From sequence record MK295204: DNA of 64,000 bases, one strand, 5' to 3'. Source of the DNA: Shigella phage vB_SdyM_006. Below are positions 18,830 to 59,168 of this stretch, one piece after another. Position numbers and translations under genes: made by a program. The notes below the pieces were generated by a model. That model was not told where the DNA came from. It did no database searches and saw only the letters and a list, made by a program, of their open reading frames with translations. Position 1 is the stretch's first letter. Each line of letters opens with the position of its first letter.

Positions 18830-19937
18830 TTTTTACCTTAATATGATCTACTGGTTTAAGAATTTTACTATTACTGAACATGTAAATATGTGTAAAACTC
18901 TGATTATTAGACATTTCATGTATAACAGAATCTACATAAAAAGTACTTAAGAACTGATTCTTAGGGTCATAGAATTCTAATTTATTTCCAGGCGTTATAT
19001 CAAAATCCCCATAAGTTGTACATTTTGCATAGGAATCATATTGAGCCATTGTATTTAATTTAGTCGCTTCTTCATACCCATTTCTAAATAACTGATCTGA
19101 ATACCCGCCATTTCTCGAAACTAAAATAGAATTTTCGCCATTTCCATTCACTATCCTAGTACAAGTTTTATCAATCATACTAAAAGAATATATAGTCGAG
19201 TTTTCGTATGGGTTTCTATTATGAGAATTTGTTTTTGTTATCCATTCAAAATCATATGCAAGTGGATATTCAAGTTGATCTGCAAATTGTCCAACCATTA
19301 ACGGTTCTCCGACTACCATTTCCTTAACTTTTGAATTAATGATTTGTTGGAAATCTGTGACGTGGATCCCATTAAAATCATCCCAAACCAAAGCAAACAT
19401 ATCAGATGCAACAGAAATACCAGTATCTCTAACATAGTCCATATATTCCTTAATTCCAAGAACCCATGGAACTAAAGGAACGTGAATATTCGTGCCAGTG
19501 ATCGTAGGTTTCAATAAAGGGGTGTCGGTATATAAAACATTTATCATTTCTTCTATAGTCTCTGTGGCGTTCTTGAAGAACACTCGACTAAATTTAAGAT
19601 TTTTATTTTTATACGGTGGAATCAATTGCATTGTAATAATGTTATCGCCTTTTTGATCAACTGATACAGAAGAATATTTTACGGCATAAATTCTATTTTT
19701 AGTTATTGATGTATTTGCATTACCTACAGAAATTTGGATTATTTGGTCTCCATCTAATTTAGTATGCATATTTTTATGATCGTAAATTTGTAACATCCCT
19801 TCGTTGGTCCCGTATAAATCATCTCTAATTGTCAACGAAGTAAAAGTTCCTGCTAATTCTATAAATCGGTTTTCTAACCAAGCATCATAACTTTGGTATA
19901 ATTTTATCGATATATTAGGATAACCCACCTTTTGCAT
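18792..19937 (-). CDS. 27: baseplate hub protein
   Basis: 381 aa vs 391 in T4; position after gp51. Confidence 0.8.
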   Translation of the reverse strand: MQKVGYPNISIKLYQSYDAWLENRFIELAGTFTSLTIRDDLYGTNEGMLQIYDHKNMHTKLDGDQIIQISVGNANTSITKNRIYAVKYSSVSVDQKGDNIITMQLIPPYKNKNLKFSRVFFKNATETIEEMINVLYTDTPLLKPTITGTNIHVPLVPWVLGIKEYMDYVRDTGISVASDMFALVWDDFNGIHVTDFQQIINSKVKEMVVGEPLMVGQFADQLEYPLAYDFEWITKTNSHNRNPYENSTIYSFSMIDKTCTRIVNGNGENSILVSRNGGYSDQLFRNGYEEATKLNTMAQYDSYAKCTTYGDFDITPGNKLEFYDPKNQFLSTFYVDSVIHEMSNNQSFTHIYMFSNSKILKPVDHIKVKNEIKDNSSTEED

Positions 19938-20688
19938 GTTTTTTGTCCTTTAAATCTTTTTCTATTAATGCTAATGTGATTGTCCTGTTCATTGGGGTCA
20001 TTTTCTCTATATCGTTTAGAGAATAGCCTTGTTTAACCATGATATGATTAATTTTATAAAATGCTATAATTTCCTCTTCAGACAAAATTATTTTAAACAG
20101 GTCTAAAATGTTTCTATATACCATTTCGTGAGTATCACAACAACTAAATTTAACAGGGATATAAATTGGATATATCTCTTTTATTATTTGTTCAAAATCA
20201 TCTAGAGAAATAACAGACATAACAAGATTTTTATTCTCTTGGTCTAAATCTTCCCATATATAAGAACCATTATTGTCTTCAATTTTATATATACAGCTGT
20301 CAAATAATTTTTTTATATCAGTTGTCATTATATCTGTAAAATCAAAATGAATTTTTATTCCTGAAGTTTCTAGAACAGGTCTTTTAAGTCTTTTCAATTC
20401 TAAGTTTAAAAAGGTCTTCTTTTCTTTACCACATTTAGGGCATTTAAAACGTATAGGAAGAACAGATTTACCAATAGATGAAGTAAACCAAATTATAAAT
20501 GCATAAGCTCTATATATTTTTGGCATATAAGGAAATGACTCTTCTAATAATTCATCTAGTATTTGTTCTGCTTCTTCTTGATTTTTTTCTATTTCACTCC
20601 GTACAAATAATAATTGTAAATAATCATCATTAGTAAACTGACGAATTCTGTATGTTTTTTCTGGTGTGACTATTCTTATTATGTTCAT
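19915..20688 (-). CDS. 51: baseplate hub assembly protein
   Basis: 257 aa vs 249 in T4; divergently arranged from gp26 with a shared late-promoter region; contains CPKCG and CCDTHE motifs. Confidence 0.65.
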   Translation of the reverse strand: MNIIRIVTPEKTYRIRQFTNDDYLQLLFVRSEIEKNQEEAEQILDELLEESFPYMPKIYRAYAFIIWFTSSIGKSVLPIRFKCPKCGKEKKTFLNLELKRLKRPVLETSGIKIHFDFTDIMTTDIKKLFDSCIYKIEDNNGSYIWEDLDQENKNLVMSVISLDDFEQIIKEIYPIYIPVKFSCCDTHEMVYRNILDLFKIILSEEEIIAFYKINHIMVKQGYSLNDIEKMTPMNRTITLALIEKDLKDKKHAKGGLS

Positions 20689-20704
20689 AGTGTCTCCTCT
20701 TATT

Positions 20705-20712
20705 TATTTATA
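20705..20712 (-). promoter_or_regulatory. late promoter TATAAATA for gene 51 (divergent, overlapping)
   Basis: Exact octamer on minus strand 17 nt upstream of ATG 20688; overlaps the plus-strand octamer by 4 bp. Confidence 0.5.
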
Positions 20713-20716
20713 AATA
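20709..20716 (+). promoter_or_regulatory. late promoter TATAAATA for gene 26
   Basis: Exact octamer 18 nt upstream of ATG 20734. Confidence 0.6.
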
Positions 20717-20733
20717 GATAAAAAGGAGACACT

Positions 20734-21318
20734 ATGTTTGAAATAACATGTAACGACATAACATACAACGCTAGATATTTCACTCTAGACGAATACGAGG
20801 ACGTTCTTAATAAAATAACTGATAATAATATTAAAGACGCCATTAGTGGGCTCTTAATTGATTGTATAGACTCCTACGATACAAACTTGCCTAAACACTA
20901 TGCAGAATGTATTTTTCTTAAATTATGGGCTCACAGTTTAGGTGGAGTAACTAAAGAACTAAATGATATTTTTGTTAATTTTAATTATATAGAAACACCT
21001 AAAGAAAAAGGATTTATTTACAAATTAGATGGATTGAGTCTCAAAATGAGATATCCAAAATTATTTGAAGACTCTGATAAATTAGAAATGGTCATAAATT
21101 GTATTGACTCAGTATTATTAGAAGACCAAACAGAAATTAAAGCTTCAGAGCTTTCTTCAGATGATTTAAACGTTTTATATTCATACTTGACGAAAGACGT
21201 AATTTTTTCGTTAAGAGACGAATTACTTAGACCTAAACCGTATATCGCTTTTCCTGTTGATGACGAAATTAAAACAATAGAAGGGTTTAAAAATTTATTA
21301 GAGGTGATAGATGAGTAA
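20734..21318 (+). CDS. 26: baseplate hub subunit
   Basis: 194 aa vs 208 in T4; immediately upstream of gp25; TATAAATA late promoter 18 nt upstream. Confidence 0.7.
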   Translation: MFEITCNDITYNARYFTLDEYEDVLNKITDNNIKDAISGLLIDCIDSYDTNLPKHYAECIFLKLWAHSLGGVTKELNDIFVNFNYIETPKEKGFIYKLDGLSLKMRYPKLFEDSDKLEMVINCIDSVLLEDQTEIKASELSSDDLNVLYSYLTKDVIFSLRDELLRPKPYIAFPVDDEIKTIEGFKNLLEVIDE

Positions 21319-21697
21319 AATGAATGTTTTATATTCTGACTTAGACCCTAAAATGGAAAAAGGCTGGGATAAAGACCTGCATAAAGTCGTAGGAGATAGG
21401 GCTGTCAAAAATTCTATTCTAGGAATAATTAGTACTAGGAAAGGGTCTAGACCCTTTGACCCAGAATTTGGGTGTAATATAACAGACCAATTATTCGAAA
21501 ATATGAGTCCATTAATAGAAGACACTATAGAGCGATCTATAGTTTCGGCTATTAAAAATTATGAGCCAAGAGTACAAAGATTAAAAGTTTCTGTTACTGC
21601 ATTGTATGATTCAAATTCTATAGTTGTAGATATTATTTTTTCTATTGTAGATAATCCAGACACATTAGAACAGATAAAAGTTCAATTATCAAAATAG
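21311..21697 (+). CDS. 25: baseplate wedge protein (lysozyme-like fold)
   Basis: 128 aa; blocks LYSD-DP-M, TRKGSRPFDPEFGC and NYEPR--L-V match T4 gp25. Confidence 0.9.
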   Translation: MSKMNVLYSDLDPKMEKGWDKDLHKVVGDRAVKNSILGIISTRKGSRPFDPEFGCNITDQLFENMSPLIEDTIERSIVSAIKNYEPRVQRLKVSVTALYDSNSIVVDIIFSIVDNPDTLEQIKVQLSK

Positions 21698-21936
21698 TTT
21701 ACTATAGTTATTAATTTATTACTTAATAGTTATATATAATATATAAAGAACTTAATAAAATAATAAAAATTCTGGAGCTGCGCTCCAGATTTCTTTAGAA
21801 ATAGTAACATATAGTTATTAATTTATTACTTAATAGTTATATAGAATATACTATACTTTTAATAAATTAATTTACTAGAGTTACTATTAATAGGCTATTA
21901 TAATAAAATGGTTATAATGAATCATTTGGAGGAACT
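21698..21936. repeat. composite AT-rich intergenic repeat element, copy A (gp25/uvsY)
   Basis: Contains two copies of ATAGTTATTAATTTATTACTTAATAGTTATATA plus a stem-loop; near-identical modules at 58498..58703 in swapped order. Confidence 0.8.
21772..21788 (+). terminator. stem-loop inside composite repeat, downstream of gene 25
   Basis: CTGGAGC-TGC-GCTCCAG. Confidence 0.4.
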
Positions 21937-22347
21937 ATGAATTTAGAAGAATTACAAACAATGTTATCAGAAGATTTAAGAATTGATCCATTAAAACTTC
22001 AATATGAAGCTGCAAATAATCCAACATTATATGGAAAATGGTTAAAAATTTATTCTGATATAAAGAAAGGAATTATTTCTTATGAAGCTAATAAGAAAAA
22101 ACTTTTAAAACAAAGATTAGACCATTATACTGGACGTGGTGATGAAGTGTGTATGGACTTATATGAAAAATCAGAACTTAAAACTGTTATTGCAGCTGAC
22201 CCAGAAATTTTGAAAACACAAACATCTGTGGAATATAGAACATTATTATTGGATTTTGCATCAAAAGCTTTAGATGCTATTAAAGCCCGTGGATTTAGTA
22301 TTAAGCACATTCTAGAATGTAGACAATTTGAGGCAGGAACAAAATGA
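21937..22347 (+). CDS. uvsY: recombination mediator protein UvsY
   Basis: 136 aa; LQYEAANN, YTGRGDE, YEKSE-KTV, LLDF-S-ALDAIK-RGF-IKHI match T4 UvsY. Confidence 0.9.
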   Translation: MNLEELQTMLSEDLRIDPLKLQYEAANNPTLYGKWLKIYSDIKKGIISYEANKKKLLKQRLDHYTGRGDEVCMDLYEKSELKTVIAADPEILKTQTSVEYRTLLLDFASKALDAIKARGFSIKHILECRQFEAGTK

Positions 22348-22715
22348 CAAGCATTGATGTATTGAATCAACAGATTGATTTAGCTTCTTCAATTGAAGGA
22401 ATTACTGACAAAACTCCTGTAATAAAATCAATGAAACACTATTTAAGAGATATAAATAATATTAAGCCAATGGCTGAAGGTATACTTAAAAGTAATAAAT
22501 TACCTGATTATACATTATCTCAAATCATTGAAGAACTAAAAGGATGGGCTATGGACCATATTTGTGTAGTTTGTAAAAAGCCTATTGATGAGAGTTTAGT
22601 TATCTATAACGATAATAATGAACCTGTTCATCCGGGGCCTTGTTATAATTTTGCTAAAGAACAACCTGTAACAGAATCAGGTCATTCTTTAAATGAAGTA
22701 GAATTATTAATGTAA
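22344..22715 (+). CDS. hypothetical protein downstream of uvsY (UvsY.-2 position)
   Basis: 123 aa; overlaps uvsY stop by 4 nt. Confidence 0.5.
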   Translation: MTSIDVLNQQIDLASSIEGITDKTPVIKSMKHYLRDINNIKPMAEGILKSNKLPDYTLSQIIEELKGWAMDHICVVCKKPIDESLVIYNDNNEPVHPGPCYNFAKEQPVTESGHSLNEVELLM

Positions 22716-22720
22716 AAAAT

Positions 22721-22746
22721 AAAAGACGAGGGTTACTCGTCTTTTT
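22721..22746. terminator. bidirectional terminator between uvsY.-2 and uvsW.1
   Basis: AAAAGACGAG-GGTTA-CTCGTCTTTTT. Confidence 0.65.
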
Positions 22747-22954
22747 CTGTTTCTAAATCTTCTAATTCTAATCTCTTGCCTTCTAAGGCATCTCTTATAG
22801 AGATATCATCAGTATCTTTAATTTCTAATTCTTTTATACGTTTAGAATAATATTTTTCTAATTCGTCTAAACCAGCCAATGTTTGACATTCTCTTATTTT
22901 GTTCATAAAAGTTTCGACACTAGCTTCGATTAAAATATCTTTAAATTTTAACAT
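22733..22954 (-). CDS. small acidic protein downstream of uvsW (UvsW.1 position)
   Basis: 73 aa; overlaps uvsW 3' end by 7 nt. Confidence 0.5.
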   Translation of the reverse strand: MLKFKDILIEASVETFMNKIRECQTLAGLDELEKYYSKRIKELEIKDTDDISIRDALEGKRLELEDLETEKDE

Positions 22955-24453
22955 AATTTTACCTCTCTCATAGAATAATCAAATTGTTCACTTGCATACC
23001 TTTCTATACGTTCTAAAGCGTGTTTTAATGCATAATTTAAATGTACATATTTCTTTTTAGAATTTTTAGATTTAGGTTTTACACCCATGTCATCTACAAT
23101 GTCCCAAAGAACACCTTCAGCTTTAGAACCATGTAATCTAAGAACACGTCCAATAGATTGTAATACGGTTACTTTTGATTTAATTGGGTGTGCAAATATA
23201 ACATGGTGTAAATTTTTTATAGATACACCAGCACTGAAAACACCATAAGAAGCGACTACAACCATCCCTGAGCGTTTTTCTGCTAAGGCCTTTATAATAT
23301 CTCTATCTTTGTCTTTAACTTCTCCTGCGATAAAGAAGACGTTTTCTTCGCCATATATAGCCTTACATGCCTCGTATAGATCTTTACCATGGGCTATTCT
23401 ATCAAACATAACAAACACATTTTCATTTTTAGATGCTAATTTACATGCAAGTTTAGCTATCCATTCATTACGCTGTTTAGCTTTAATAATGATTTTAATT
23501 TCATCTTGATACGAAAATCCTTTAACTTTTTCTGTAAACGCATCCGGGTATCTTAAAAACAAAGTATTAATTTTAAGTTTAGACACTTGTCCTGCTTCCA
23601 TTAGTTCAGCCGTGGACACTGGTTTGTATATATCTCCAAATAATCCGATATATTGCATTACATTAGCTTTGCCATCTTTAACGGTTCCTGTTAGCCCGAA
23701 TTTAAATTTACAGTTGTTTAATCCGTTAATAATAGTACTAATACTTTTACCAGTCGCTAAATGACACTCATCATTCATTAACATTCCAAATTGACTAAAC
23801 CATTCTTTTGGTTGCTTAATAGCTGTCTGCCAGGTTGATACGTAAACCAAAGCATCAGAATCTTTAGCTGTACCGCCTTTTATTCCTAATAACATTTCTT
23901 TAGAAAATAGTCTATAGTCGACTAAGTCATCAATCATTTGTTTAACAAGAATAGTTGTTGGAACTAAAATTAAAACTTTACCTTGAAAGTTTTCTATATA
24001 ATAACGTGCTAAGAGCGCCTGGATCAACGATTTACCAGCTGATGTAGGTAAATTCAATAAAGCTCTATTTTGTGTTAAGCCTTTAACTACAGAATCTTTT
24101 TGATACCAATGAGGCGTTATCTTAGATGACCCAGAATATATTTCTTTAGAATCTATCCAATCAGAAACTTCTTTTTCAGTAATATCGCCATTATCATATA
24201 TTTTAGGATCCGTTTCTACAGTATAGTCCATATTAGAAGCAAACTTTTTAACATAGTTCACAAGCCCGTATGGTAATAAGCCGTCATACCCTAAAATTCT
24301 AATCTTGCCGTCCCATTGACCATATTTAAATTTTGGATTAAATTGGTACCCAGGAGTTTCGAAAGAGAAATAATCTCTTAATTCAAAGAACACAGAATCT
24401 TCACACTCGATTTTTACACTACTATAATCGTAAAACTTTAATTTAATATCCAT
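22948..24453 (-). CDS. uvsW: UvsW DNA helicase (SF2)
   Basis: Long identity runs with T4 UvsW (PTSAGKSLIQALLARYY, WFSQFGM-MNDECHLATGKSIS, KKKYVHLNY-LKH); start set at ATG 24453 (MDIKLKF), which lies downstream of a minus-strand TATAAATA. Confidence 0.92.
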   Translation of the reverse strand: MDIKLKFYDYSSVKIECEDSVFFELRDYFSFETPGYQFNPKFKYGQWDGKIRILGYDGLLPYGLVNYVKKFASNMDYTVETDPKIYDNGDITEKEVSDWIDSKEIYSGSSKITPHWYQKDSVVKGLTQNRALLNLPTSAGKSLIQALLARYYIENFQGKVLILVPTTILVKQMIDDLVDYRLFSKEMLLGIKGGTAKDSDALVYVSTWQTAIKQPKEWFSQFGMLMNDECHLATGKSISTIINGLNNCKFKFGLTGTVKDGKANVMQYIGLFGDIYKPVSTAELMEAGQVSKLKINTLFLRYPDAFTEKVKGFSYQDEIKIIIKAKQRNEWIAKLACKLASKNENVFVMFDRIAHGKDLYEACKAIYGEENVFFIAGEVKDKDRDIIKALAEKRSGMVVVASYGVFSAGVSIKNLHHVIFAHPIKSKVTVLQSIGRVLRLHGSKAEGVLWDIVDDMGVKPKSKNSKKKYVHLNYALKHALERIERYASEQFDYSMREVKLC

Positions 24454-24467
24454 TACTTTCACCTTGT

Positions 24468-24475
24468 TATAAATA
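24468..24475 (+). promoter_or_regulatory. late promoter TATAAATA for inh-like/hoc-like genes
   Basis: Exact octamer 33 nt upstream of ATG 24509. Confidence 0.6.
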
Positions 24476-24481
24476 CATATA

Positions 24482-24489
24482 TATTTATA
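24482..24489 (-). promoter_or_regulatory. late promoter TATAAATA for uvsW
   Basis: Exact octamer on minus strand 28 nt upstream of ATG 24453. Confidence 0.6.
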
Positions 24490-24508
24490 CAAAGCCTAAG
24501 AGGACATT

Positions 24509-28483: not shown

Positions 28484-28513
28484 TTTATCACCTTTATAAT
28501 AAGAATATATTAC

Positions 28514-28521
28514 TATTTATA
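28514..28521 (-). promoter_or_regulatory. late promoter TATAAATA for alt
   Basis: Exact octamer on minus strand 30 nt upstream of alt ATG 28483. Confidence 0.6.
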
Positions 28522-28527
28522 CCAAAA

Positions 28528-28550
28528 AGGAGACCGAAGTCTCCTTGTTT
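28528..28550 (-). terminator. hairpin terminator (AGGAGAC-CGAA-GTCTCCT family)
   Basis: 7-bp stem, CGAA loop, T-run on minus strand; between cassette gene and alt late promoter. Confidence 0.6.
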
Positions 28551-28563
28551 TTATATTATTTAT

Positions 28564-28773: not shown

Positions 28774-28813
28774 AATATACTCCGTTGTTTCCGTGTGTTG
28801 TTTCAATATGTAT

Positions 28814-28842
28814 ATAATAACATGTCTACAGCAAAAGTAAAC
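28814..28842 (-). promoter_or_regulatory. early promoter (GTTTAC-N17-TATTAT), cassette copy
   Basis: Minus-strand GTTTAC (plus 28837-28842), 17-nt spacer, TATTAT (plus 28814-28819). Confidence 0.6.
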
Positions 28843-28861
28843 ATGTTATTGTGGCTTTTTA

Positions 28862-29098: not shown

Positions 29099-29135
29099 TA
29101 TATACTCCATTTTCGTATGTTGTTTCAATATGTAT

Positions 29136-29164
29136 ATAATAACATGTCTACAGCAAAAGTAAAC
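29136..29164 (-). promoter_or_regulatory. early promoter (GTTTAC-N17-TATTAT), cassette copy
   Basis: Minus-strand GTTTAC (plus 29159-29164), 17-nt spacer, TATTAT (plus 29136-29141); directly follows a terminator hairpin. Confidence 0.6.
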
Positions 29165-29185
29165 AAAAAAGAGCCTTTCGGCTCT
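29165..29185 (-). terminator. hairpin terminator upstream of cassette promoter
   Basis: GAGCC-TTTC-GGCTC followed on minus strand by TTTTTT then GTTTAC. Confidence 0.6.
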
Positions 29186-32659: not shown

Positions 32660-33093
32660 AACCGTCTCCTTAAAGATGTCAATATACCACAGAATTCTTG
32701 GTTTGTTAATATAGTTTCGAACTTATTTTCGCATCCTATAGTATGAACTAATGTTTTATCGCCTGTTGCTCTCAGAGCATCTCTGAATGATTTATTCTGA
32801 TTAAACATATGAATATATGCTCTGACTAGTAAACGTTTGTAGGCTTCACTGTGACGATTAATAGGGCATCCATTATACCACATAGTGTCATTTTTCATTT
32901 TAGGACCAGCTAATTTGGCCTTTAATCCATGCAGTTTAAACACTTCAGATTGTTCTTTAGGGTCTTTAATTTTTAATCCTTGTAAAAATCCTTCTATACT
33001 GCCAAAGAGCTGATTGTCCATTTTAAAAGGATGCTCAGCAAAATTACTTAAAGCACATGAAGGCCAAGGGCCTCTAGAATGAATATCAATCAT
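32656..33093 (-). CDS. NADAR-like (YbiA-type) putative ADP-ribose glycohydrolase
   Basis: 145 aa; LSNFAEHPFKMDNQLFGSIEGFLQGLKI aligns with the YbiA core FSNFA-x-PI-x-DG-x3-TSEHYFQAQKF. Confidence 0.55.
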   Translation of the reverse strand: MIDIHSRGPWPSCALSNFAEHPFKMDNQLFGSIEGFLQGLKIKDPKEQSEVFKLHGLKAKLAGPKMKNDTMWYNGCPINRHSEAYKRLLVRAYIHMFNQNKSFRDALRATGDKTLVHTIGCENKFETILTNQEFCGILTSLRRRL

Positions 33094-33107
33094 ATATCCT
33101 CTAAACC

Positions 33108-33130
33108 AAAAAAGGAGACCGGAGTCTCCT
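33108..33130 (-). terminator. hairpin terminator 20 nt upstream of NADAR-like gene start
   Basis: AGGAGAC-CGGA-GTCTCCT with T-run on minus strand. Confidence 0.55.
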
Positions 33131-33137
33131 TAATCAT

Positions 33138-33402: not shown

Positions 33403-33432
33403 ATAATATCCTTTTTTAAAAGAGAAGTAAAC
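33403..33432 (-). promoter_or_regulatory. early promoter (GTTTAC-N18-TATTAT)
   Basis: Minus-strand GTTTAC (plus 33427-33432) and TATTAT (plus 33403-33408) upstream of gene 33138..33374. Confidence 0.45.
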
Positions 33433-33450
33433 ACTTATTTTCAATAAAAC

Positions 33451-33474
33451 CAAAAAAGGAGACCGAAGTCTCCT
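33451..33474 (-). terminator. hairpin terminator (AGGAGAC-CGAA-GTCTCCT family)
   Basis: Same stem as 28528 copy; T-run on minus strand. Confidence 0.6.
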
Positions 33475-33479
33475 TAAAT

Positions 33480-33614
33480 TTATTTCTTGTTTCCTAAATT
33501 AGCTAAAAACTTAGCTCGCCCATTTTCTTGTCGTTTAACAAATCCAACCAGTTTGTCTAGGTCTTGGTTAATACGTTTATTTGTTTTTCGTTTGTAACCT
33601 TTACGTGCGGACAT
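33480..33614 (-). CDS. small basic protein, 44 aa
   Basis: My own translation: MSARKGYKRKTNKRINQDLDKLVGFVKRQENGRAKFLANLGNKK; below ORF-track cutoff. Confidence 0.3.
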   Translation of the reverse strand: MSARKGYKRKTNKRINQDLDKLVGFVKRQENGRAKFLANLGNKK

Positions 33615-47995: not shown

Positions 47996-48285
47996 TTATT
48001 ATCACTCACGTACACCAATTGTTTAAAAGATAGTTTAAGCTGTTCTATAGATACTTTAGAATCCGCTGTAACGAATTCTAATTCACCCATTCCTAGCATT
48101 TTACCATCAACCCAAAGTTCAATACATGTCATGTCCCACCAATTTTTTCTAGAATTCAAGAAATCTCTAACTTGTTCTAAGTTAGAGAAAACTCCTGCGT
48201 TTCTAGAGGATTCACACATATTATGGTCAACAACAATAAGTATCTTCGACATTTTTATCCACCAAAACAAAATAAATTTGCTCAC
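47980..48285 (-). CDS. hypothetical protein
   Basis: 101 aa ORF overlapping td start by 16 nt. Confidence 0.4.
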
Positions 48286-50572: not shown

Positions 50573-50601
50573 ATAATATCACGCTAAAAATCTTTGTAAA
50601 C
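50573..50601 (-). promoter_or_regulatory. early promoter (AAATAAATGTTTAC-N17-TATTAT)
   Basis: Minus-strand GTTTAC (plus 50596-50601), 17-nt spacer, TATTAT (plus 50573-50578); follows the gene 32 terminator. Confidence 0.55.
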
Positions 50602-50620
50602 ATTTATTTTCTATAAAACC

Positions 50621-50643
50621 AAAAAAGGAACCCGAAGGTTCCT
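50621..50643 (-). terminator. terminator after gene 32 (AGGAACC-CGAA-GGTTCCT)
   Basis: Hairpin then T-run on minus strand, directly followed by an early promoter. Confidence 0.65.
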
Positions 50644-50655
50644 TTTATTAAGAAA

Positions 50656-53729: not shown

Positions 53730-56700
53730 ATGACTTTAAATAAATCACTTAAAGCAACGTACGGACTTGATGCCTCTAATGAAAAAGTTATAAATGTCGG
53801 ATTAGCTGACAAAAATACTTTAACAGATGGCGTTAATGTCGAATTTTTAATTCAAGAAAACACAATCCAAGCATACGACAAAAATCGTGGATATGAAAAA
53901 GGCTTTGCTGTTATATTTGAAAATAGAATTTATGTTTCAAATCAAAAAATAGAATCTCCAGCTGGAGATTTTGAGCCTCATAAATGGTTTTCTTTACGTG
54001 TAGACCCTAAATGGGACACGGTATTTGAAACCGTAGCATCAGGTCAAATTATAACATCAGGACAGTTTATTGCAGCTAATACGTCAATAAACGATTTATA
54101 TTTTAAATTGCCTAGAAAACCACAACCAGGTGATACAATTTGTATCAAAGAGGTCTCTGGTAATTCAGGCTATAAGTTCCTTAAAATAGGTAAAACCGAT
54201 AATAATATTTTATGGAACGGAACTAATGTTGAAGAATTATATCTAACACGTCCGTATTCGCAAACTTATTTTATATTTTCTGGGAACGTTTGGAATGTAT
54301 TTCAAATAGAGCACGAAGATATTGGTAGAATAATATCTACTTCACCATTAAAGCAACAAGTTTCTTCTGGAGAGAGATTATATAGATTATCCAATACTGG
54401 TCCTATCAATATCATGTTACCTAAATATGCTATGCATGGTGATGTTATTGAGATGTTTGATATTGATGGATTAACTTCAATAAATCACTTAACTCTTTAC
54501 ACGTCTGAAGGGTCTGGGCATGCTATAGGAACTTTAGGACAATCTAAATTAGAAATAAGAACTATTGGTAACGGGCGATTAGTATTTGATAGTTCTAATA
54601 ATCTATGGAGATTATGGGACGGCGATATAAGAACTCGTTTAAAAACTATCAAAGAAGATCGTAAACTATTACCTAATGAACAGGTTCTTGTCTATGGGAT
54701 GAATAATACAGTTAAAGAAACCGTCACTCTAACGTTACCTAGAAATATTGCTGTCGGTGACACAGTTGAGATTTCTTTAGGTTATATGAGAAAAGGCCAG
54801 ACAGTTATCATAAAGACTGAGGGCGATGATATTATTGGGACTGATAAAACATTATTACAATTCCCTAAACGATCTCAGTATCCGCCTGAAATGACCTGGG
54901 TTGAAGTAAAAGAACTTGTGTTTAATGGTACTGATGATTATTTACCTTATTTAAAATTTGCGTATGTAGAAACATTATCTGATTTAGGGTGGGCAGTTCA
55001 ACATTATCGTCCTAATGTTGAGCGTGTAGATTTTAAAAATCCAGAAAGAATCGGATTGATAGCATTAGCTACTCAAGATCAAGCAAACAAAGATCATGAA
55101 AACAACCCAGAAAAAGAATTGGCTGTAACACCATTTACTTTGGCAAATAGAGTTGCTACAGAAGAACGACGTGGTATTGCTAAAACAGCAAAAACTTCTA
55201 TGGTCAATCAAAACTCAAATGGAAAATTTGAAGATGACACAATTGTCACACCTAAAAAATTAAACGAACGAACAGCTACAGAAGAACGACGTGGCCTAGC
55301 CGAAATTGCTACTCAAGAAGAAACAAATACAGGTAAAGATGATACGACTATTGTTTCTCCATTAAAACTCGAGAACAGGAAAGCCTCAGAAACTTTATCT
55401 GGTATTGCTAAAATAGTCCCATCTAAAGGAACGCCAGGAACACAGCGTGATAAACAAGGAACTGGTGTTTATAATTACACGGATAATAAGACTATTGTTT
55501 CTCCTTCAGCTATACATGAGCTTTTAAGTACAGAAAATTCTCATGGTGTTGTTTATTTAGCTTCTGAAACTGAAGTTATTGAAGCACCAGATATGGACCC
55601 TAAATTTCCTGTTGCTGTAACTCCGGTTCAATTACATAAGAAAACTGCTACAGAAGATAGAATAGGTTTCTCTCAAATCGCTACACAAGAAGAAACTGAT
55701 GAAGGAACTGATAATTTTAAATTTATAACACCTAAAAAATTAAATGATCGAAGATCAACAGAAACTTTAGAAGGTATCTCAAGATACGCTACTTATGAAG
55801 AGTTTAAAAAAGGTGATTCAAATTTAATATCCGAGCCTAATAAAATAAAACAGTTTTTACAAGAAGCAAGAATAAAAGTTGTTCCTGAATCTGGAATAGT
55901 TTTTACTGGTAATATTTGGGACACATGTAATTTTGATATCAAACCTTCAACTGAAGTTGATAGAGGGACATTAAAATTATCAACTCAAGGCCAAGCTAAT
56001 ACTGGTGAAGATGATACAACAGCAATTACACCTAAAAAATTACATAATAAAAAATCAACTGAATTGGTTGAAGGTATAATCCAACTTTCTAATTACGCTG
56101 AAACAATAGCAGGTGATGTTAATAATAAAGCAATATCTCCTCAGAATTTTGTTTTAGCTGTTCAAACAGAAAATAATGGATTAGAAGCCTCTACTTCTTT
56201 ACGTGGATTTGTTAGACTGTTAGATGGTGCTAGTATTTGGCAAGGAACAGATGAATCTGGTAGTGACCCGGATAATGAAGACTTTTTGCATAATGGATAT
56301 GCAGTATCTCCACGAGAATTAAATAAAGCTTTAAGTCATTATCTTCCTATCAAAGGAAAAGCAGTTAACTCTACTTTATTTGATGACTTAAAAACTTCTG
56401 ATTTTATTAGAAGAAACATAGACCAAGAAATTGATGGGGATATGACTTTTAATAACCCAGTTATTCTTAAAGATACATTAGTTTCTACAAGTTCTGGTAA
56501 ATTTGAATCACTAGAAAGTAAAACGGTTTCTGTCGGTGACGGTACTAAAGGTTCAATAAACTTTTTGTCTGCTACACCATGGAAAATTGATGTACAAGAT
56601 GATTTCAAAATTAACAATGTAAAAATTGATAAAGATGAAGTTATCCATTCTAAAGGATTAGAAACAATTTCTCATGTTGACACTTCAGAATATAGATTAA

Positions 56701-57386
56701 ATGGTAAAACATTTATTTCTGGACAAGGTACTATCAATGTAGGTGATGCTGAATCTCAAATTAGATTCCAATCCAAAAATCCTAATGATGTTAGAATTTC
56801 TGGCTCTACAATTATTGTTAATACCAATTTAGAAGAAAAAGGTAATAAGCACTTTATTAATCGTAAACAAGATACCGTTGACGGAGATATTGAATTTACT
56901 AAACCAGTTAAAATCAATATCCAAGAAAATATGGTTGAAGTTTCCGAAGGTATATTTGTTGCCAAAATAACTTCTAAACAAGAATATGAGAAATATCCAG
57001 GTATTGCAGTTCCTAAAATAGACCAAGAAACACAAAAAGTTATTGATTATACTTATGTTAAAGGACCTGGTACACTTACTCAATATGGTGATACTAAATC
57101 TTATACATACAGAATCTGGGCTCCACAAGCTTTAGGTCAAGAAGATAATCATAACAACTATTCATTATGGATGCAGGTTTATAATCCAGTTAAAGGAGAA
57201 TTTGATGCATGGGGTAGAATATACACATCTCAAAATCCACCAACTGCTGCTGAAATAGGAGCTGTGTCTTCATCTGGTTCTACTTTCGAAACACTTAAAG
57301 TTAATCAATGGTTACAAGTTGGACCTGTAAGAATGGTTCCAGACCCAGTAACTAAAACTGTAAGGTATATATGGATCGATGAGTAA
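53730..57386 (+). CDS. 34: long tail fibre proximal subunit
   Basis: 1218 aa; internal repeats of the form ATEERRG-x-A...DDTT-x-TPKKL; first gene of the 34-35-36-37 series. Confidence 0.85.
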   Translation: MTLNKSLKATYGLDASNEKVINVGLADKNTLTDGVNVEFLIQENTIQAYDKNRGYEKGFAVIFENRIYVSNQKIESPAGDFEPHKWFSLRVDPKWDTVFETVASGQIITSGQFIAANTSINDLYFKLPRKPQPGDTICIKEVSGNSGYKFLKIGKTDNNILWNGTNVEELYLTRPYSQTYFIFSGNVWNVFQIEHEDIGRIISTSPLKQQVSSGERLYRLSNTGPINIMLPKYAMHGDVIEMFDIDGLTSINHLTLYTSEGSGHAIGTLGQSKLEIRTIGNGRLVFDSSNNLWRLWDGDIRTRLKTIKEDRKLLPNEQVLVYGMNNTVKETVTLTLPRNIAVGDTVEISLGYMRKGQTVIIKTEGDDIIGTDKTLLQFPKRSQYPPEMTWVEVKELVFNGTDDYLPYLKFAYVETLSDLGWAVQHYRPNVERVDFKNPERIGLIALATQDQANKDHENNPEKELAVTPFTLANRVATEERRGIAKTAKTSMVNQNSNGKFEDDTIVTPKKLNERTATEERRGLAEIATQEETNTGKDDTTIVSPLKLENRKASETLSGIAKIVPSKGTPGTQRDKQGTGVYNYTDNKTIVSPSAIHELLSTENSHGVVYLASETEVIEAPDMDPKFPVAVTPVQLHKKTATEDRIGFSQIATQEETDEGTDNFKFITPKKLNDRRSTETLEGISRYATYEEFKKGDSNLISEPNKIKQFLQEARIKVVPESGIVFTGNIWDTCNFDIKPSTEVDRGTLKLSTQGQANTGEDDTTAITPKKLHNKKSTELVEGIIQLSNYAETIAGDVNNKAISPQNFVLAVQTENNGLEASTSLRGFVRLLDGASIWQGTDESGSDPDNEDFLHNGYAVSPRELNKALSHYLPIKGKAVNSTLFDDLKTSDFIRRNIDQEIDGDMTFNNPVILKDTLVSTSSGKFESLESKTVSVGDGTKGSINFLSATPWKIDVQDDFKINNVKIDKDEVIHSKGLETISHVDTSEYRLNGKTFISGQGTINVGDAESQIRFQSKNPNDVRISGSTIIVNTNLEEKGNKHFINRKQDTVDGDIEFTKPVKINIQENMVEVSEGIFVAKITSKQEYEKYPGIAVPKIDQETQKVIDYTYVKGPGTLTQYGDTKSYTYRIWAPQALGQEDNHNNYSLWMQVYNPVKGEFDAWGRIYTSQNPPTAAEIGAVSSSGSTFETLKVNQWLQVGPVRMVPDPVTKTVRYIWIDE

Positions 57387-58497
57387 TATAATGGTTGAAT
57401 TCGGCCAAGATTATGTAGGTGCTCAAACGTTTGCAGAGAACAATGCACTTACATATAAGTTAACTATTAAGGCTAGTAATAAAAACACACAGGGTGAATC
57501 CTGTGTGTTAATTAACGATAATCAAATAACAACTGAATGCGATACTGGTATTAATGTTTGGGTCATTAATAATATAGGTAAACTTGATAATACTATGTGT
57601 TTTGATGTATCAACAGAATCTGGTATAACAGCATTTATAACATTTTTGAAAGAACAAACTTCTGGAATAATTTGTTTAGCTTCATCTAACGAATTAGATT
57701 CAACTCAAGTCTTAGCTGATTATATGAAATCTATAGGTTCTGCTTCATGGAATAATTTTATGATTTCTAAAATCAAAACAGTGTCTTATGCAGCAGTCTA
57801 TCGTCCAGAATTAAAATCCATTGTTCTGGAATCTATACAATATTCTGATGGAATTAAAGAAGATGAATTACTTGAGTTAGAAACCATTTTTGATTCTAAT
57901 AATTCTATAGGAATAACAGGATTTCCTGGTTCAATCGTATATGATTATAAAGAATACACGTCAATTGAACAAGATTATAAAAAATGGCCTACTAATCTTT
58001 TAAATAACAAGCTTTCTGATTATGGTCTTAAACCTGGCGATTGGGTTTCTTTGAGTGCTTCTATATTTGGAGATAAAGAATTAAAAGATGACGGTGGATG
58101 GACTAGAATAGATTGTAGATGGGTATTTGGTAATGCATGGAAACAATCATTTTATTTAGAAAGTACATTGAAAGGGAATTATCCTGTTCAGTCTATGGTT
58201 AATCCTGGTATCTGGGAATCTAAAACAGTTTATTCTCAAATACCAGAAGGTGTAGATGGATTTGTTATAATAGCTTCAAGATATAATTCAGACTTAGGCC
58301 ATTCTGCTGTAAAAAATGTTGCATTCGGAAGAGCTGCAGAACCTATAATAGAAAAATCTGATAGACAAATAGGTATAAATGGTATTAGAAATTCTTTTGT
58401 AAAAGAGGAAGAACAAAAAGTAGGATCGTTATTAAGTTTGTTAAATCTTAAAGACAAATCCGACACAGTTTCTTCTATAAACTTTAAAGAAATATAG
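57379..58497 (+). CDS. 35: long tail fibre hinge protein
   Basis: 372 aa, same length as T4 gp35; overlaps gp34 stop by 8 nt. Confidence 0.75.
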   Translation: MSNIMVEFGQDYVGAQTFAENNALTYKLTIKASNKNTQGESCVLINDNQITTECDTGINVWVINNIGKLDNTMCFDVSTESGITAFITFLKEQTSGIICLASSNELDSTQVLADYMKSIGSASWNNFMISKIKTVSYAAVYRPELKSIVLESIQYSDGIKEDELLELETIFDSNNSIGITGFPGSIVYDYKEYTSIEQDYKKWPTNLLNNKLSDYGLKPGDWVSLSASIFGDKELKDDGGWTRIDCRWVFGNAWKQSFYLESTLKGNYPVQSMVNPGIWESKTVYSQIPEGVDGFVIIASRYNSDLGHSAVKNVAFGRAAEPIIEKSDRQIGINGIRNSFVKEEEQKVGSLLSLLNLKDKSDTVSSINFKEI

Positions 58498-58634
58498 TAA
58501 CATATAGTTATTAATTTATTACTTAATAGTTATATAGAATATACTAGACTTTTAATAAATTAATTTACTAGAGTTACTAATTTATTACTTAATAGTTATA
58601 TATAATATAAAGAACTTAATAAAAATAATAAATT

Positions 58635-58658
58635 CTGGGAGCTTTGCTCCCAGTTTTC
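58635..58658 (+). terminator. stem-loop inside composite repeat, downstream of gene 35
   Basis: CTGGGAGC-TTT-GCTCCCAG followed by TTTTC. Confidence 0.5.
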
Positions 58659-58675
58659 TTTAGAAAATGCTCTTT

Positions 58676-58683
58676 TATAAATA
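58676..58683 (+). promoter_or_regulatory. late promoter TATAAATA for gene 36
   Basis: Exact octamer 20 nt upstream of ATG 58704. Confidence 0.6.
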
Positions 58684-58703
58684 GTATAAAGAAAGGAGAT
58701 TAT

Positions 58704-59168
58704 ATGGCAGATCTTAAAAGAGGAAGTACTGCTGGAGGAGAATTAATCCTTACACAAGGTAATTTTCCATTAATTCCAGTAGGAAATTCCTTATATTTTA
58801 ATAAGCATAAAGTCTATACCGAACACGATAAGCCTACAGCAGAAGAAGTTGATTCTGTTTCGGCATCTAAAGGTGGAGAATTTAAAGAAAGAGTAATTTT
58901 TAAAGAATTACAGGTAGGGAAACAAGACCCTTTAATTATTAAAGACCATTCTATAGCTGGGACTGAAATAATTCTTAAACAATTAGAAATTAAAAACTTA
59001 GAAAAATCATTACTAGTTCTTAATCCTGATAATCCAGAATTACTTCAAGTTCAATCAATGAAAACAGATAGATTGGTTTTAGACACAATATCAACTCAAC
59101 CTAATCATGCAGTTAGATATGACCAAGTGGTTCTTGTTGGAGATATTATAGATTTTGGAGAATTCTAA
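58704..59168 (+). CDS. 36: long tail fibre distal small subunit
   Basis: Start at ATG 58704 (MADLKRGSTAGGELILTQGNFPL), matching the T4 gp36 N-terminus; AAGGAG SD and TATAAATA late promoter upstream. Confidence 0.85.
   Translation: MADLKRGSTAGGELILTQGNFPLIPVGNSLYFNKHKVYTEHDKPTAEEVDSVSASKGGEFKERVIFKELQVGKQDPLIIKDHSIAGTEIILKQLEIKNLEKSLLVLNPDNPELLQVQSMKTDRLVLDTISTQPNHAVRYDQVVLVGDIIDFGEF

Follow-up and report, generated by a model that had tools for sequence, protein, structure and literature searches.

The genomes of T4-like phages are known to carry composite promoter/terminator repeats that recombine (PMC2839356, PMC4122927). These promoter(early) stem-loop elements (PeSLs; Arbiol et al. 2010, PMC2839356; Comeau et al. 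2014, PMC4122927) are numerous, contain a consensus sigma70/T4-early promoter, are found mainly beside ORFans in hyperplastic regions and differ from one close relative to the next. Two further T4 systems invite comparison: the middle promoters, in which a MotA box, (a/t)(a/t)(a/t)TGCTTtA, is followed at a distance of 12 ± 1 bp by an excellent −10 element (Hinton 2010, PMC2988021), and the replication origins oriF(uvsY) and oriG(34) (Kreuzer and Brister 2010, PMC3016281). Here we describe a composite AT-rich repeat in a 64,000-nucleotide (nt) stretch of the genome of Shigella phage vB_SdyM_006 (MK295204; the window), where it lies in the spacers between gp25 and uvsY and between gp35 and gp36. 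The repeat combines copies of a ~45-bp unit (U) with a hairpin (T); it recurs at four conserved sites in related phages, always in the orientation of the flanking genes, with hairpins preserved by compensatory changes and with copies that evolve in concert. We tentatively interpret it as a PeSL-like cassette in which U is a promoter-plus-leader-like unit and T an intrinsic terminator, an interpretation that we favour but would stop short of calling probable.

The window DNA is that of a T4-like phage of the Proteus type, genus Bragavirus, and is by region 99.0–99.7% identical to phiP4-3 and 94.7–99.5% to SJ_PmiM, with 84–88% identity to Pm5461 and PM2. Reverse-complemented, it covers phiP4-3 positions ~69.8 kb to 4.5 kb, which places its late genes on the + strand. 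Pfam matches identify gp25 (open reading frame (ORF) 21311-21697, stop codon 21695-21697; GPW_gp25, E = 4e-16) and UvsY (ORF 21937-22347, ATG at 21937; E = 2e-44), and the annotation of near-identical relatives identifies gp35 (ORF 57379-58497) and gp36 (58704-59168). These assignments agree with an original prediction, made from the sequence alone, that had named the gp25–uvsY spacer (21698-21936; locus A) and the gp35–gp36 spacer (58498-58703; locus B) as sites of two long shared modules, X and Y, in swapped order. Self-BLAST of the window bears out the modules as well: Y matches at 85 of 86 nt (98.8%; 21801-21886 and 58494-58579; E = 5e-39) and X at 87.7% over 114 nt (21691-21801 and 58557-58666; E = 6e-32), the order being X–hairpin–Y at 21.7 kb and Y–X–hairpin at 58.5 kb. 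The matches are long and specific rather than a mere reflection of AT bias. No further match to the modules within the window was better than E 0.04, and a repeat finder placed all four module copies in a single family (D1).

Judged by their alignment, X and Y are two variants of one unit, U. They have in common a 31-bp core, AGTTA(T/C)TAATTTATTACTTAATAGTTATATA (Table 1), and part just past a −10-like hexamer that reads TATAAT in X and TAGAAT in Y. The core is unchanged in 16 of the 16 Bragavirus units examined.

Searches of whole genomes revealed further copies: the original prediction had two of four loci, the others lying outside the window. The complete phiP4-3 genome contains eight unit copies at exactly four loci and no more, namely gp25>uvsY (locus A, arranged X-T-Y), gp35>gp36 (locus B, Y-X-T), gp2>gp3 (locus C, X-T-Y) and the junction between a 473-amino-acid (aa) helicase-like gene and gp55 (locus D, Y-X-T′). 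Pm5461 has the same four loci, each with two units and one hairpin (flanking DNA 84–88% identical in the regions compared). Units occupy the same four junctions in Morganella phage Rgz1 (Gualtarvirus) and, at one unit per junction, in Serratia phages PS2 and Muldoon (Muldoonvirus), and a whole-genome scan of Providencia phage PSTCR6 found copies only at the four loci. Yersinia phage MHG19 carries a unit at junction B (only gp35>gp36 was inspected), a 176-kb IMG/VR T4-like contig does so at junctions B and D, and BLAST matches were found in one to four places each in Serratia phages WSPA, 4S and 92A1 and in Cronobacter phage VP8. In every genome examined across all four junctions, U is oriented as the flanking genes are. 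From these comparisons, the cassette appears to be common to at least four groups of T4-like phages, and probably to six. The equivalent four junctions of T4 lack the repeat and carry locus-specific terminator and promoter signals. The motif is absent from Morganellaceae genomes, so that mimicry of host sequence was rejected, and otherwise appeared as seven scattered singletons in unrelated metagenome-assembled genomes; a metagenome search for relatives gave five singletons only, and the IMG/VR singletons lie in unrelated coding sequence. A 'promoter' match in phiR1-37 lies on the opposite strand and was discarded as chance.

By this comparison, the unit is more conserved than the genes beside it. 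Comparison of gp25 and UvsY among the Bragavirus, Gualtarvirus and PSTCR6 lineages gives identities of 58–78% for protein and 64–72% for DNA, a mutual divergence similar to that of each lineage from T4, whereas Bragavirus and PSTCR6 have 28 bp of the core in common without a difference. The constrained positions stand out in the version of the GC-richer Serratia phages and form the skeleton TTATTAnTTAA-N3-TTATATA(G/T)A-N14-17-TAATAA(A), the N14-17 often including AC(C)TAG. An inverted pair, TTATTA…TAATAA, is present in every unit inspected (30, together with those of Serratia, MHG19 and the IMG/VR contig), and its gap is 31 bp in most units measured (range 29–33). In Muldoonvirus, the spacers inside U are GC-rich, and the order at gp2>gp3 is T then U.

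The hairpin is conserved in a different manner. On either strand, the two hairpins of the window are scored as intrinsic terminators (0.1 expected by chance), and the one at locus B has one G-C pair more than the one at locus A, added on both arms. In 18 locus copies from six genomes, all 18 hairpins have perfect stems of 7–9 bp with a loop of 3–4 nt (−11.5 to −16.5 kcal/mol), and they do so with at least six different stem sequences among which compensatory changes preserve pairing, so that selection acts on pairing itself. An upstream A tract, equivalent to an antisense U tract, accompanies most of the 18 copies (the exceptions being the first hairpins at loci A and C of Pm5461). Only Bragavirus has a good U tract on the sense strand; in Gualtarvirus and PSTCR6 it is absent. 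At both window loci, T thus has the predicted GC-rich hairpin and U tract of an intrinsic terminator. The original prediction held that nothing in the standard T4 promoter or terminator repertoire explains elements this long. That claim does not hold: the GC hairpin, with an A tract on one side and a T tract on the other, has the make-up of an ordinary intrinsic terminator, predicted in this phage to work in both directions, and composite repeats of the PeSL type are already known in T4-like phages (PMC2839356, PMC4122927). T resembles other intrinsic terminators in its perfect GC stem and T tract, at all four loci, but accounts for only ~25 bp of each ~200-bp spacer, and in the other genera the U tract lies on the antisense side only.

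Copies within one genome are more alike than their counterparts in another. In phiP4-3, loci A and C are 99.4% identical over 169 nt and loci B and D 97.1% over 137 nt, whereas orthologous spacers of phiP4-3 and Pm5461 are 81–90% identical. Because paralogues are more similar than orthologues, the sequences indicate that gene conversion between loci keeps the copies alike. In Pm5461, the gp3 leader (AATAATAAACTAAGGAAACTAT) stands in front of the hairpin of locus A; in the window, the gp35 stop context, ATA TAG TAACATATAG, has been converted to the version found ahead of unit Y at locus A (as also at phiP4-3 locus D), whereas the phiP4-3 gp35 stop context stays ATC TAA TAACGTATAG. The copies therefore swap sequence over tens of kilobases. 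Recombination hotspots were among the functions first proposed for the element, and recombination between its copies is supported. At locus A of phiP4-3 there is also a 49-bp tandem duplication (record ~48022-48070; window equivalent 21680-21727) that takes in the 3′ end of gp25 together with the first half of the unit core. Neither the window nor SJ_PmiM, Pm5461 or PM2 has this duplication, which reflects either unequal recombination or misassembly at the repeat.

As a promoter/leader plus terminator, the cassette would punctuate four fixed co-directional gene junctions. T would end transcription arriving from the upstream genes and, in this phage, antisense transcription too. A unit placed after T (Y at gp25>uvsY and gp2>gp3) would restart transcription into the next gene; a unit placed before T (X at both window loci; Y-X at gp35>gp36) would give rise only to a short abortive transcript, and the downstream gene would then use a promoter of its own, TATAAATA in the case of gp36 and one resembling T4 PuvsY in the case of uvsY. 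The swapped order would in this way alter the wiring, X-T-Y feeding uvsY and Y-X-T ending both restarts before gp36, which would then be late-only. Gene conversion between loci would keep the copies alike.

We read U as a promoter plus leader because of its promoter-like anatomy and its position between hairpin and gene start. The conserved block in Bragavirus extends ~35 bp upstream of the −10-like hexamer (TATAAT, TAGAAT or TATAAA) and has an invariant TTATTA at a distance of 13 bp from it. U adjoins the ribosome-binding site or ATG of gp3, downstream of the hairpin, in four lineages (Bragavirus, Gualtarvirus, PSTCR6 and Muldoonvirus), and likewise that of gp36 in PSTCR6; no other promoter motif was found in those gp3 spacers or in the PSTCR6 gp36 spacer. 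That U is a promoter is nevertheless something we infer, as is the form of polymerase or the factor that would read its conserved 30 bp. The likeness to PeSLs lies in a repeated intergenic composite of an AT-rich promoter-like part and a GC stem-loop that is a predicted terminator, in copies that recombine and in the proposed insulation of neighbouring transcription units. The differences concern promoter type and location: the strong sigma70-like or T4-early promoter (GTTTAC-N17-TATwAT) is absent from the core, and rather than in hyperplastic regions, all four loci lie between conserved core genes in every genus examined at all four junctions. The U-T family may therefore work as PeSLs do while standing apart from them in its exactly four sites and its conservation across genera.

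Comparison with the known promoters of this phage places the core outside all three classes, as the original prediction had supposed: it matches neither the early pattern, GTTTAC(A/T)-N17-TAT(T/A)AT, nor the ATGCTT(A/T)A boxes of middle promoters, nor the late motif TATAAATA, which within the two window spacers occurs only ahead of gp36 and never inside the repeat. Sigma70, early, middle and late identities were accordingly all rejected. There is a likeness to T4 middle promoters in that the box of U stands 13 bp from a sigma70 −10-like hexamer, over a spacer almost the same as that of the Gualtarvirus uvsY promoter (AGCTTTA-CTTAATAGTATAT-TATAAT, against TTTATTA-CTTAATAGTTATA-TATAAT in U). In the 10-nt MotA-box window at this distance, U carries W at −33 together with T at both −32 and −28, positions that MotA is reported to sense; it departs from the box at −31 and −30, where little base recognition is reported, and at −29, where A replaces a T that MotA is reported to sense (PMC2988021). 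U thus keeps the geometry (TTATTA-N13-TAKAAW) but has TTTATTA in place of TGCTTwA, and its −10 is often imperfect where an excellent one is required. Three more specific candidates were rejected. TACTTAA as a P46-type MotA box (ACTT centre) has a usable −10 at the right spacing in unit Y of Bragavirus alone (TATACT, 13 bp), is separated from the hexamer by just 8 bp and fails in other units and genera; a late promoter carrying an insertion (TATA+TAG+AATA) does not hold across genera; and ACTATAG(A/G) as a T7/SP6 start region has just 6–7 nt in common, without the specificity region, and no phage RNA polymerase is annotated.

Several observations weigh seriously against U being a promoter. The core has no −35 hexamer, GTTTAC, TGCTT MotA box or late motif, and a sigma70 scan of the cores gave no site above chance, the best (TTAATA-16-TATACT, 9/12) occurring only in unit Y of locus A. 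The key last T of the −10-like hexamer is missing from many units (TATAAA, TAGAAA; TAGATA in MHG19). A search for TTATTA-N13-TAKAAW returned the 8 cassette matches and 3 others against 2.6 expected by chance, so the would-be promoter class has no other member in the genome. At three of the four junctions U runs into the hairpin and the downstream gene has its own promoter, making another unnecessary there. The ~28 bp conserved where flanking genes are ~60–72% identical exceed the usual contacts of RNA polymerase, and a promoter cassette leaves the even spacing of the loci around the genome unexplained. One of the three extra matches, TTATTA-N13-TAGAAT at phiP4-3 99251, lies outside the window and precedes the tRNA cluster, whose first gene starts ~10 nt further on; it may be a coincidence, given that the total of extra matches fits chance.

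The main alternative is that the four cassettes are sequence-defined replication origins or initiation sites, in which a promoter-like or initiator-binding core and easily melted DNA beside a GC hairpin would prime or open the DNA, by analogy with T4 oriF(uvsY) and oriG(34), where a promoter and a downstream unwinding element form an R-loop. We consider this unlikely but worth taking seriously. It would account for the exact number of loci in complete genomes, at conserved junctions in at least four lineages, and for their spacing in phiP4-3 (38, 45, 36 and 49 kb), a minimum gap this large having p = 0.0026 among random sets of four drawn from 60 intergenic gaps; the statistic was, however, picked after the data had been seen. 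In windows of 60–150 bp, no other part of the 168-kb phiP4-3 genome is as AT-rich or as unstable as the four loci (z 4.0–4.9), and those of PSTCR6 rank 1, 2, 3 and 5 in instability, but in Muldoonvirus, with its GC-rich spacers in U, AT richness like that of an unwinding element is not conserved. Locus A occupies the exact position of T4 oriF, and T4 oriG (152947) and oriE (79355) lie ~3 kb from the gp35/36 and gp2/3 junctions, respectively; the gp55 junction, by contrast, has no counterpart among the T4 origins placed by a review (PMC3016281) or by the T4 record, namely oriA near soc, oriC near rI.-1, oriE, oriF and oriG.

In architecture, too, the likeness is partial. Minimal T4 origins are ~100 bp of promoter and AT-rich unwinding element, few and scattered, one of them between gp25 and uvsY and another in the long-tail-fibre cluster, and they coincide with recombination hotspots (PMC3016281), all of which recalls the cassette. 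The A-rich tail of X (60–65% A, against 50% in the T4 oriF leader) and a predicted transcript that is non-coding at three of the four junctions fit as well. T4 origins, however, share no sequence motif, need a middle promoter with a MotA box and are indifferent to the sequence of the unwinding element (PMC3016281), whereas the cassette has a common ~45-bp sequence at all sites, lacks a TGCTT box and is followed by a hairpin. The oriE and oriG primers of T4 are antisense to late genes, but U is co-directional, and no GC-skew change occurs at the gp55 locus; a weak AT-skew difference there (p 0.02) was left uninterpreted. At locus A, the promoter that does resemble T4 PuvsY/oriF (AATGCTTCA-N13-TATAAT-GAATC) lies outside the repeat at 21892-21918 and aligns as GGTATAATGAATC in T4 and GGTTATAATGAATC here. 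A small hairpin forms in the spacer of the uvsY promoter both in T4 (CACGTTAAAACGTG, which separates the MotA box from TATAAT) and in Serratia phages PS2 and Muldoon (CTCGAGGCTGCGCCTCGA). The wider and less certain proposal, that the unit marks four sites of replication initiation, or of recruitment of the replication/clamp-loading machinery, across Bragavirus, Gualtarvirus, Muldoonvirus, the PSTCR6 lineage and probably MHG19 and its relatives, strikes us as unlikely. If true, it would mean sequence-defined, evenly spaced origins, one at the position of oriF, in relatives of a phage with no shared origin motif, and would supply a defined sequence for the questions about T4 replication raised by Kreuzer and Brister (origin usage; R-loops at other origins).

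A role as a DNA site, either bound by a phage or host protein for some purpose other than initiation (operator, nucleoid or silencer target, programmed break site, recombination hotspot) or serving as a homology linker between quarters of the genome, seems to us improbable. The inverted TTATTA…TAATAA pair at its nearly fixed distance, the recurrence of ATAG-containing submotifs ~21 bp apart and a cross-genus identity far above that of the flanking genes would suit a binding site, and the exchange between loci, for which the evidence is direct, would suit either version. No candidate protein emerged, however, and host genomes hold no copies; a purely evolvability-related linker would leave the base-by-base conservation unexplained. 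The helicase-like neighbour of locus D was considered as a cassette-specific partner and rejected, as it occurs in 241 phage records and no tie to the cassette is apparent. This 473-aa gene (phrog_2467), 5′ of the gp55 cassette and outside the window (phiP4-3 127294-128715), has a sub-threshold DEAD/DEAH helicase match (E 6.5e-4). Its wide distribution among T4-like phages takes in Aeromonas, RB43 and RB49/JSE-type phages, and it is absent from the 55.1–nrdH region upstream of T4 gene 55.

We give still less credence to U acting as RNA, whether as a 3′ untranslated region (UTR) or processing element of the upstream mRNA or as a small RNA of ~40–55 nt made up of an A-rich ARN-type stretch and the terminator hairpin. 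U lies within 0–20 nt of the upstream stop codon and so would be transcribed as 3′ UTR wherever it precedes T, and the segment from X to T folds better than shuffled sequence (z −3.4 and −4.1), although mostly because of the hairpin. The tail, AAU-AAA-AAU-AAU-AAA, is reminiscent of an Hfq distal-face motif. Against this, a search with Rfam 15 covariance models returned only noise (E 1–8, ~14–19 bits against gathering scores of 39–56), with no match at E ≤ 10 beyond it, and a known RNA family was rejected; the most conserved part of U lies upstream of any plausible start, the would-be transcribed part being the one that varies between genera; the 3′ U tract needed for release of a small RNA is missing from Gualtarvirus and PSTCR6; and in Muldoonvirus T precedes U at gp2>gp3. 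A long AU hairpin in unit Y was likewise rejected, for lack of significant stability (z −1.7) and of covariation between its arms. The small RNA named among the original candidates thus gains no support.

That the similarity is nothing but low-complexity AT bias or an assembly artefact can be dismissed, even in a region of 85–93% A+T, by matches of 85/86 and 100/114 nt at the E values given above, by the same arrangement in seven independent Bragavirus records and by the retention of the motif skeleton in the GC-richer Serratia phages; a MITE-like (miniature inverted-repeat transposable element) insertion was rejected because the units have no flanking target-site duplications.

Our literature search found no description of the U element, and a full-text search for the motif gave nothing relevant; where these phages' genomes were published, the regulatory signals reported are MEME-derived promoters and ARNold terminators only. 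A non-coding sequence kept almost base for base at four shared junctions, when the essential proteins of the genera concerned are ~60% identical, implies a specific reader, be it a transcription factor, a form of polymerase or an initiator. If U is a promoter class, it would be a fourth beside the early, middle and late classes for part of the family. The cassettes are also recombination-active homology patches inside structural gene blocks, in phages used for therapy against Proteus, Providencia, Morganella and Serratia.

Table 1. Features of the two repeat-bearing spacers of the window, at gp25>uvsY (locus A) and gp35>gp36 (locus B)
Feature	Position	Strand	Details
Unit X, locus A	21698-21770	+	Begins directly after gp25 stop codon; core 21706-21736; TTATTACTTAA 21716-21726; TTATATATA 21730-21738; −10-like TATAAT 21735-21740
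A-rich tail of unit X, locus A	21741-21770	+	TAATAAA 21753-21759 and 21761-21767
Hairpin, locus A	21771-21796	both	TCTGGAGC-TGC-GCTCCAGA (21771-21789), then TTTCTTT; A tract upstream; predicted RNA fold ~−12.7 kcal/mol
Unit Y, locus A	21801-21886	+	Core 21813-21843; TTATATAGA 21837-21845; −10-like TAGAAT 21842-21847; TATACT 21847-21852 and 21852-21857; TAATAAA 21860-21866; tail end is a partial restart of the unit (TTTACTAGAGTTACTA)
uvsY-specific sequence	21887-21936	+	Outside the repeat; box-like AGGCTATTA 21892-21900, 12-bp spacer, TATAAT 21913-21918, GAATC
uvsY Shine-Dalgarno	21928-21932	+	GGAGG; ATG 21937
Unit Y, locus B	58494-58579	+	Overlaps gp35 stop codon 58495-58497; core 58506-58536; TAGAAT 58535-58540; TAATAAA 58553-58559
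Unit X, locus B	58560-58634	+	5′ end fused to unit Y tail; core 58572-58602 (AGTTACTAATTT... variant); TATAAT 58601-58606; A-rich tail 58607-58634; TAATAAA 58617-58623 and 58626-58632
Hairpin, locus B	58635-58660	both	CTGGGAGC-TTT-GCTCCCAG (58635-58653), then TTTTCTT
gp36 late promoter	58676-58683	+	TATAAATA; outside the repeat; same motif annotated as promoter in Pm5461
gp36 Shine-Dalgarno	58693-58698	+	AAGGAG; ATG 58704; region 58676-58703

The window contains other repeats and one feature of gene order that we record here. The gp26–gp25–uvsY group (window 19915-24492) lies on the same strand as the tail-fibre genes gp34–37, whereas the two groups are on opposite strands in the T4 record, which suggests a block inversion relative to T4 in this lineage. 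A second repeat family, D2, lies on the − strand at 28498-28551, 33083-33136, 33427-33480 and 50596-50649. Read on that strand, it consists of a GC hairpin (AAGGAGACTTCGGTCTCCTT) and a T tract, followed in several copies by an early promoter (..AATAA(G/A)TGTTTAC..), and is to all appearances an ordinary PeSL-like terminator/early-promoter cassette, distinct from the U-T family. A 56-nt direct repeat (28788-28843 and 29110-29165; 96% identity) carries on the − strand an early promoter and leader (TGTTTACTTTTGCTGTAGACATGTTATTATATACAT...) before two adjacent small genes. The D3 and D4 repeats (31–41 nt, in-frame, within 55155-56063, spaced by multiples of 12–60 nt) fall inside the gp34 gene (53730-57386) and are thus part of the coding sequence of the proximal tail fibre.

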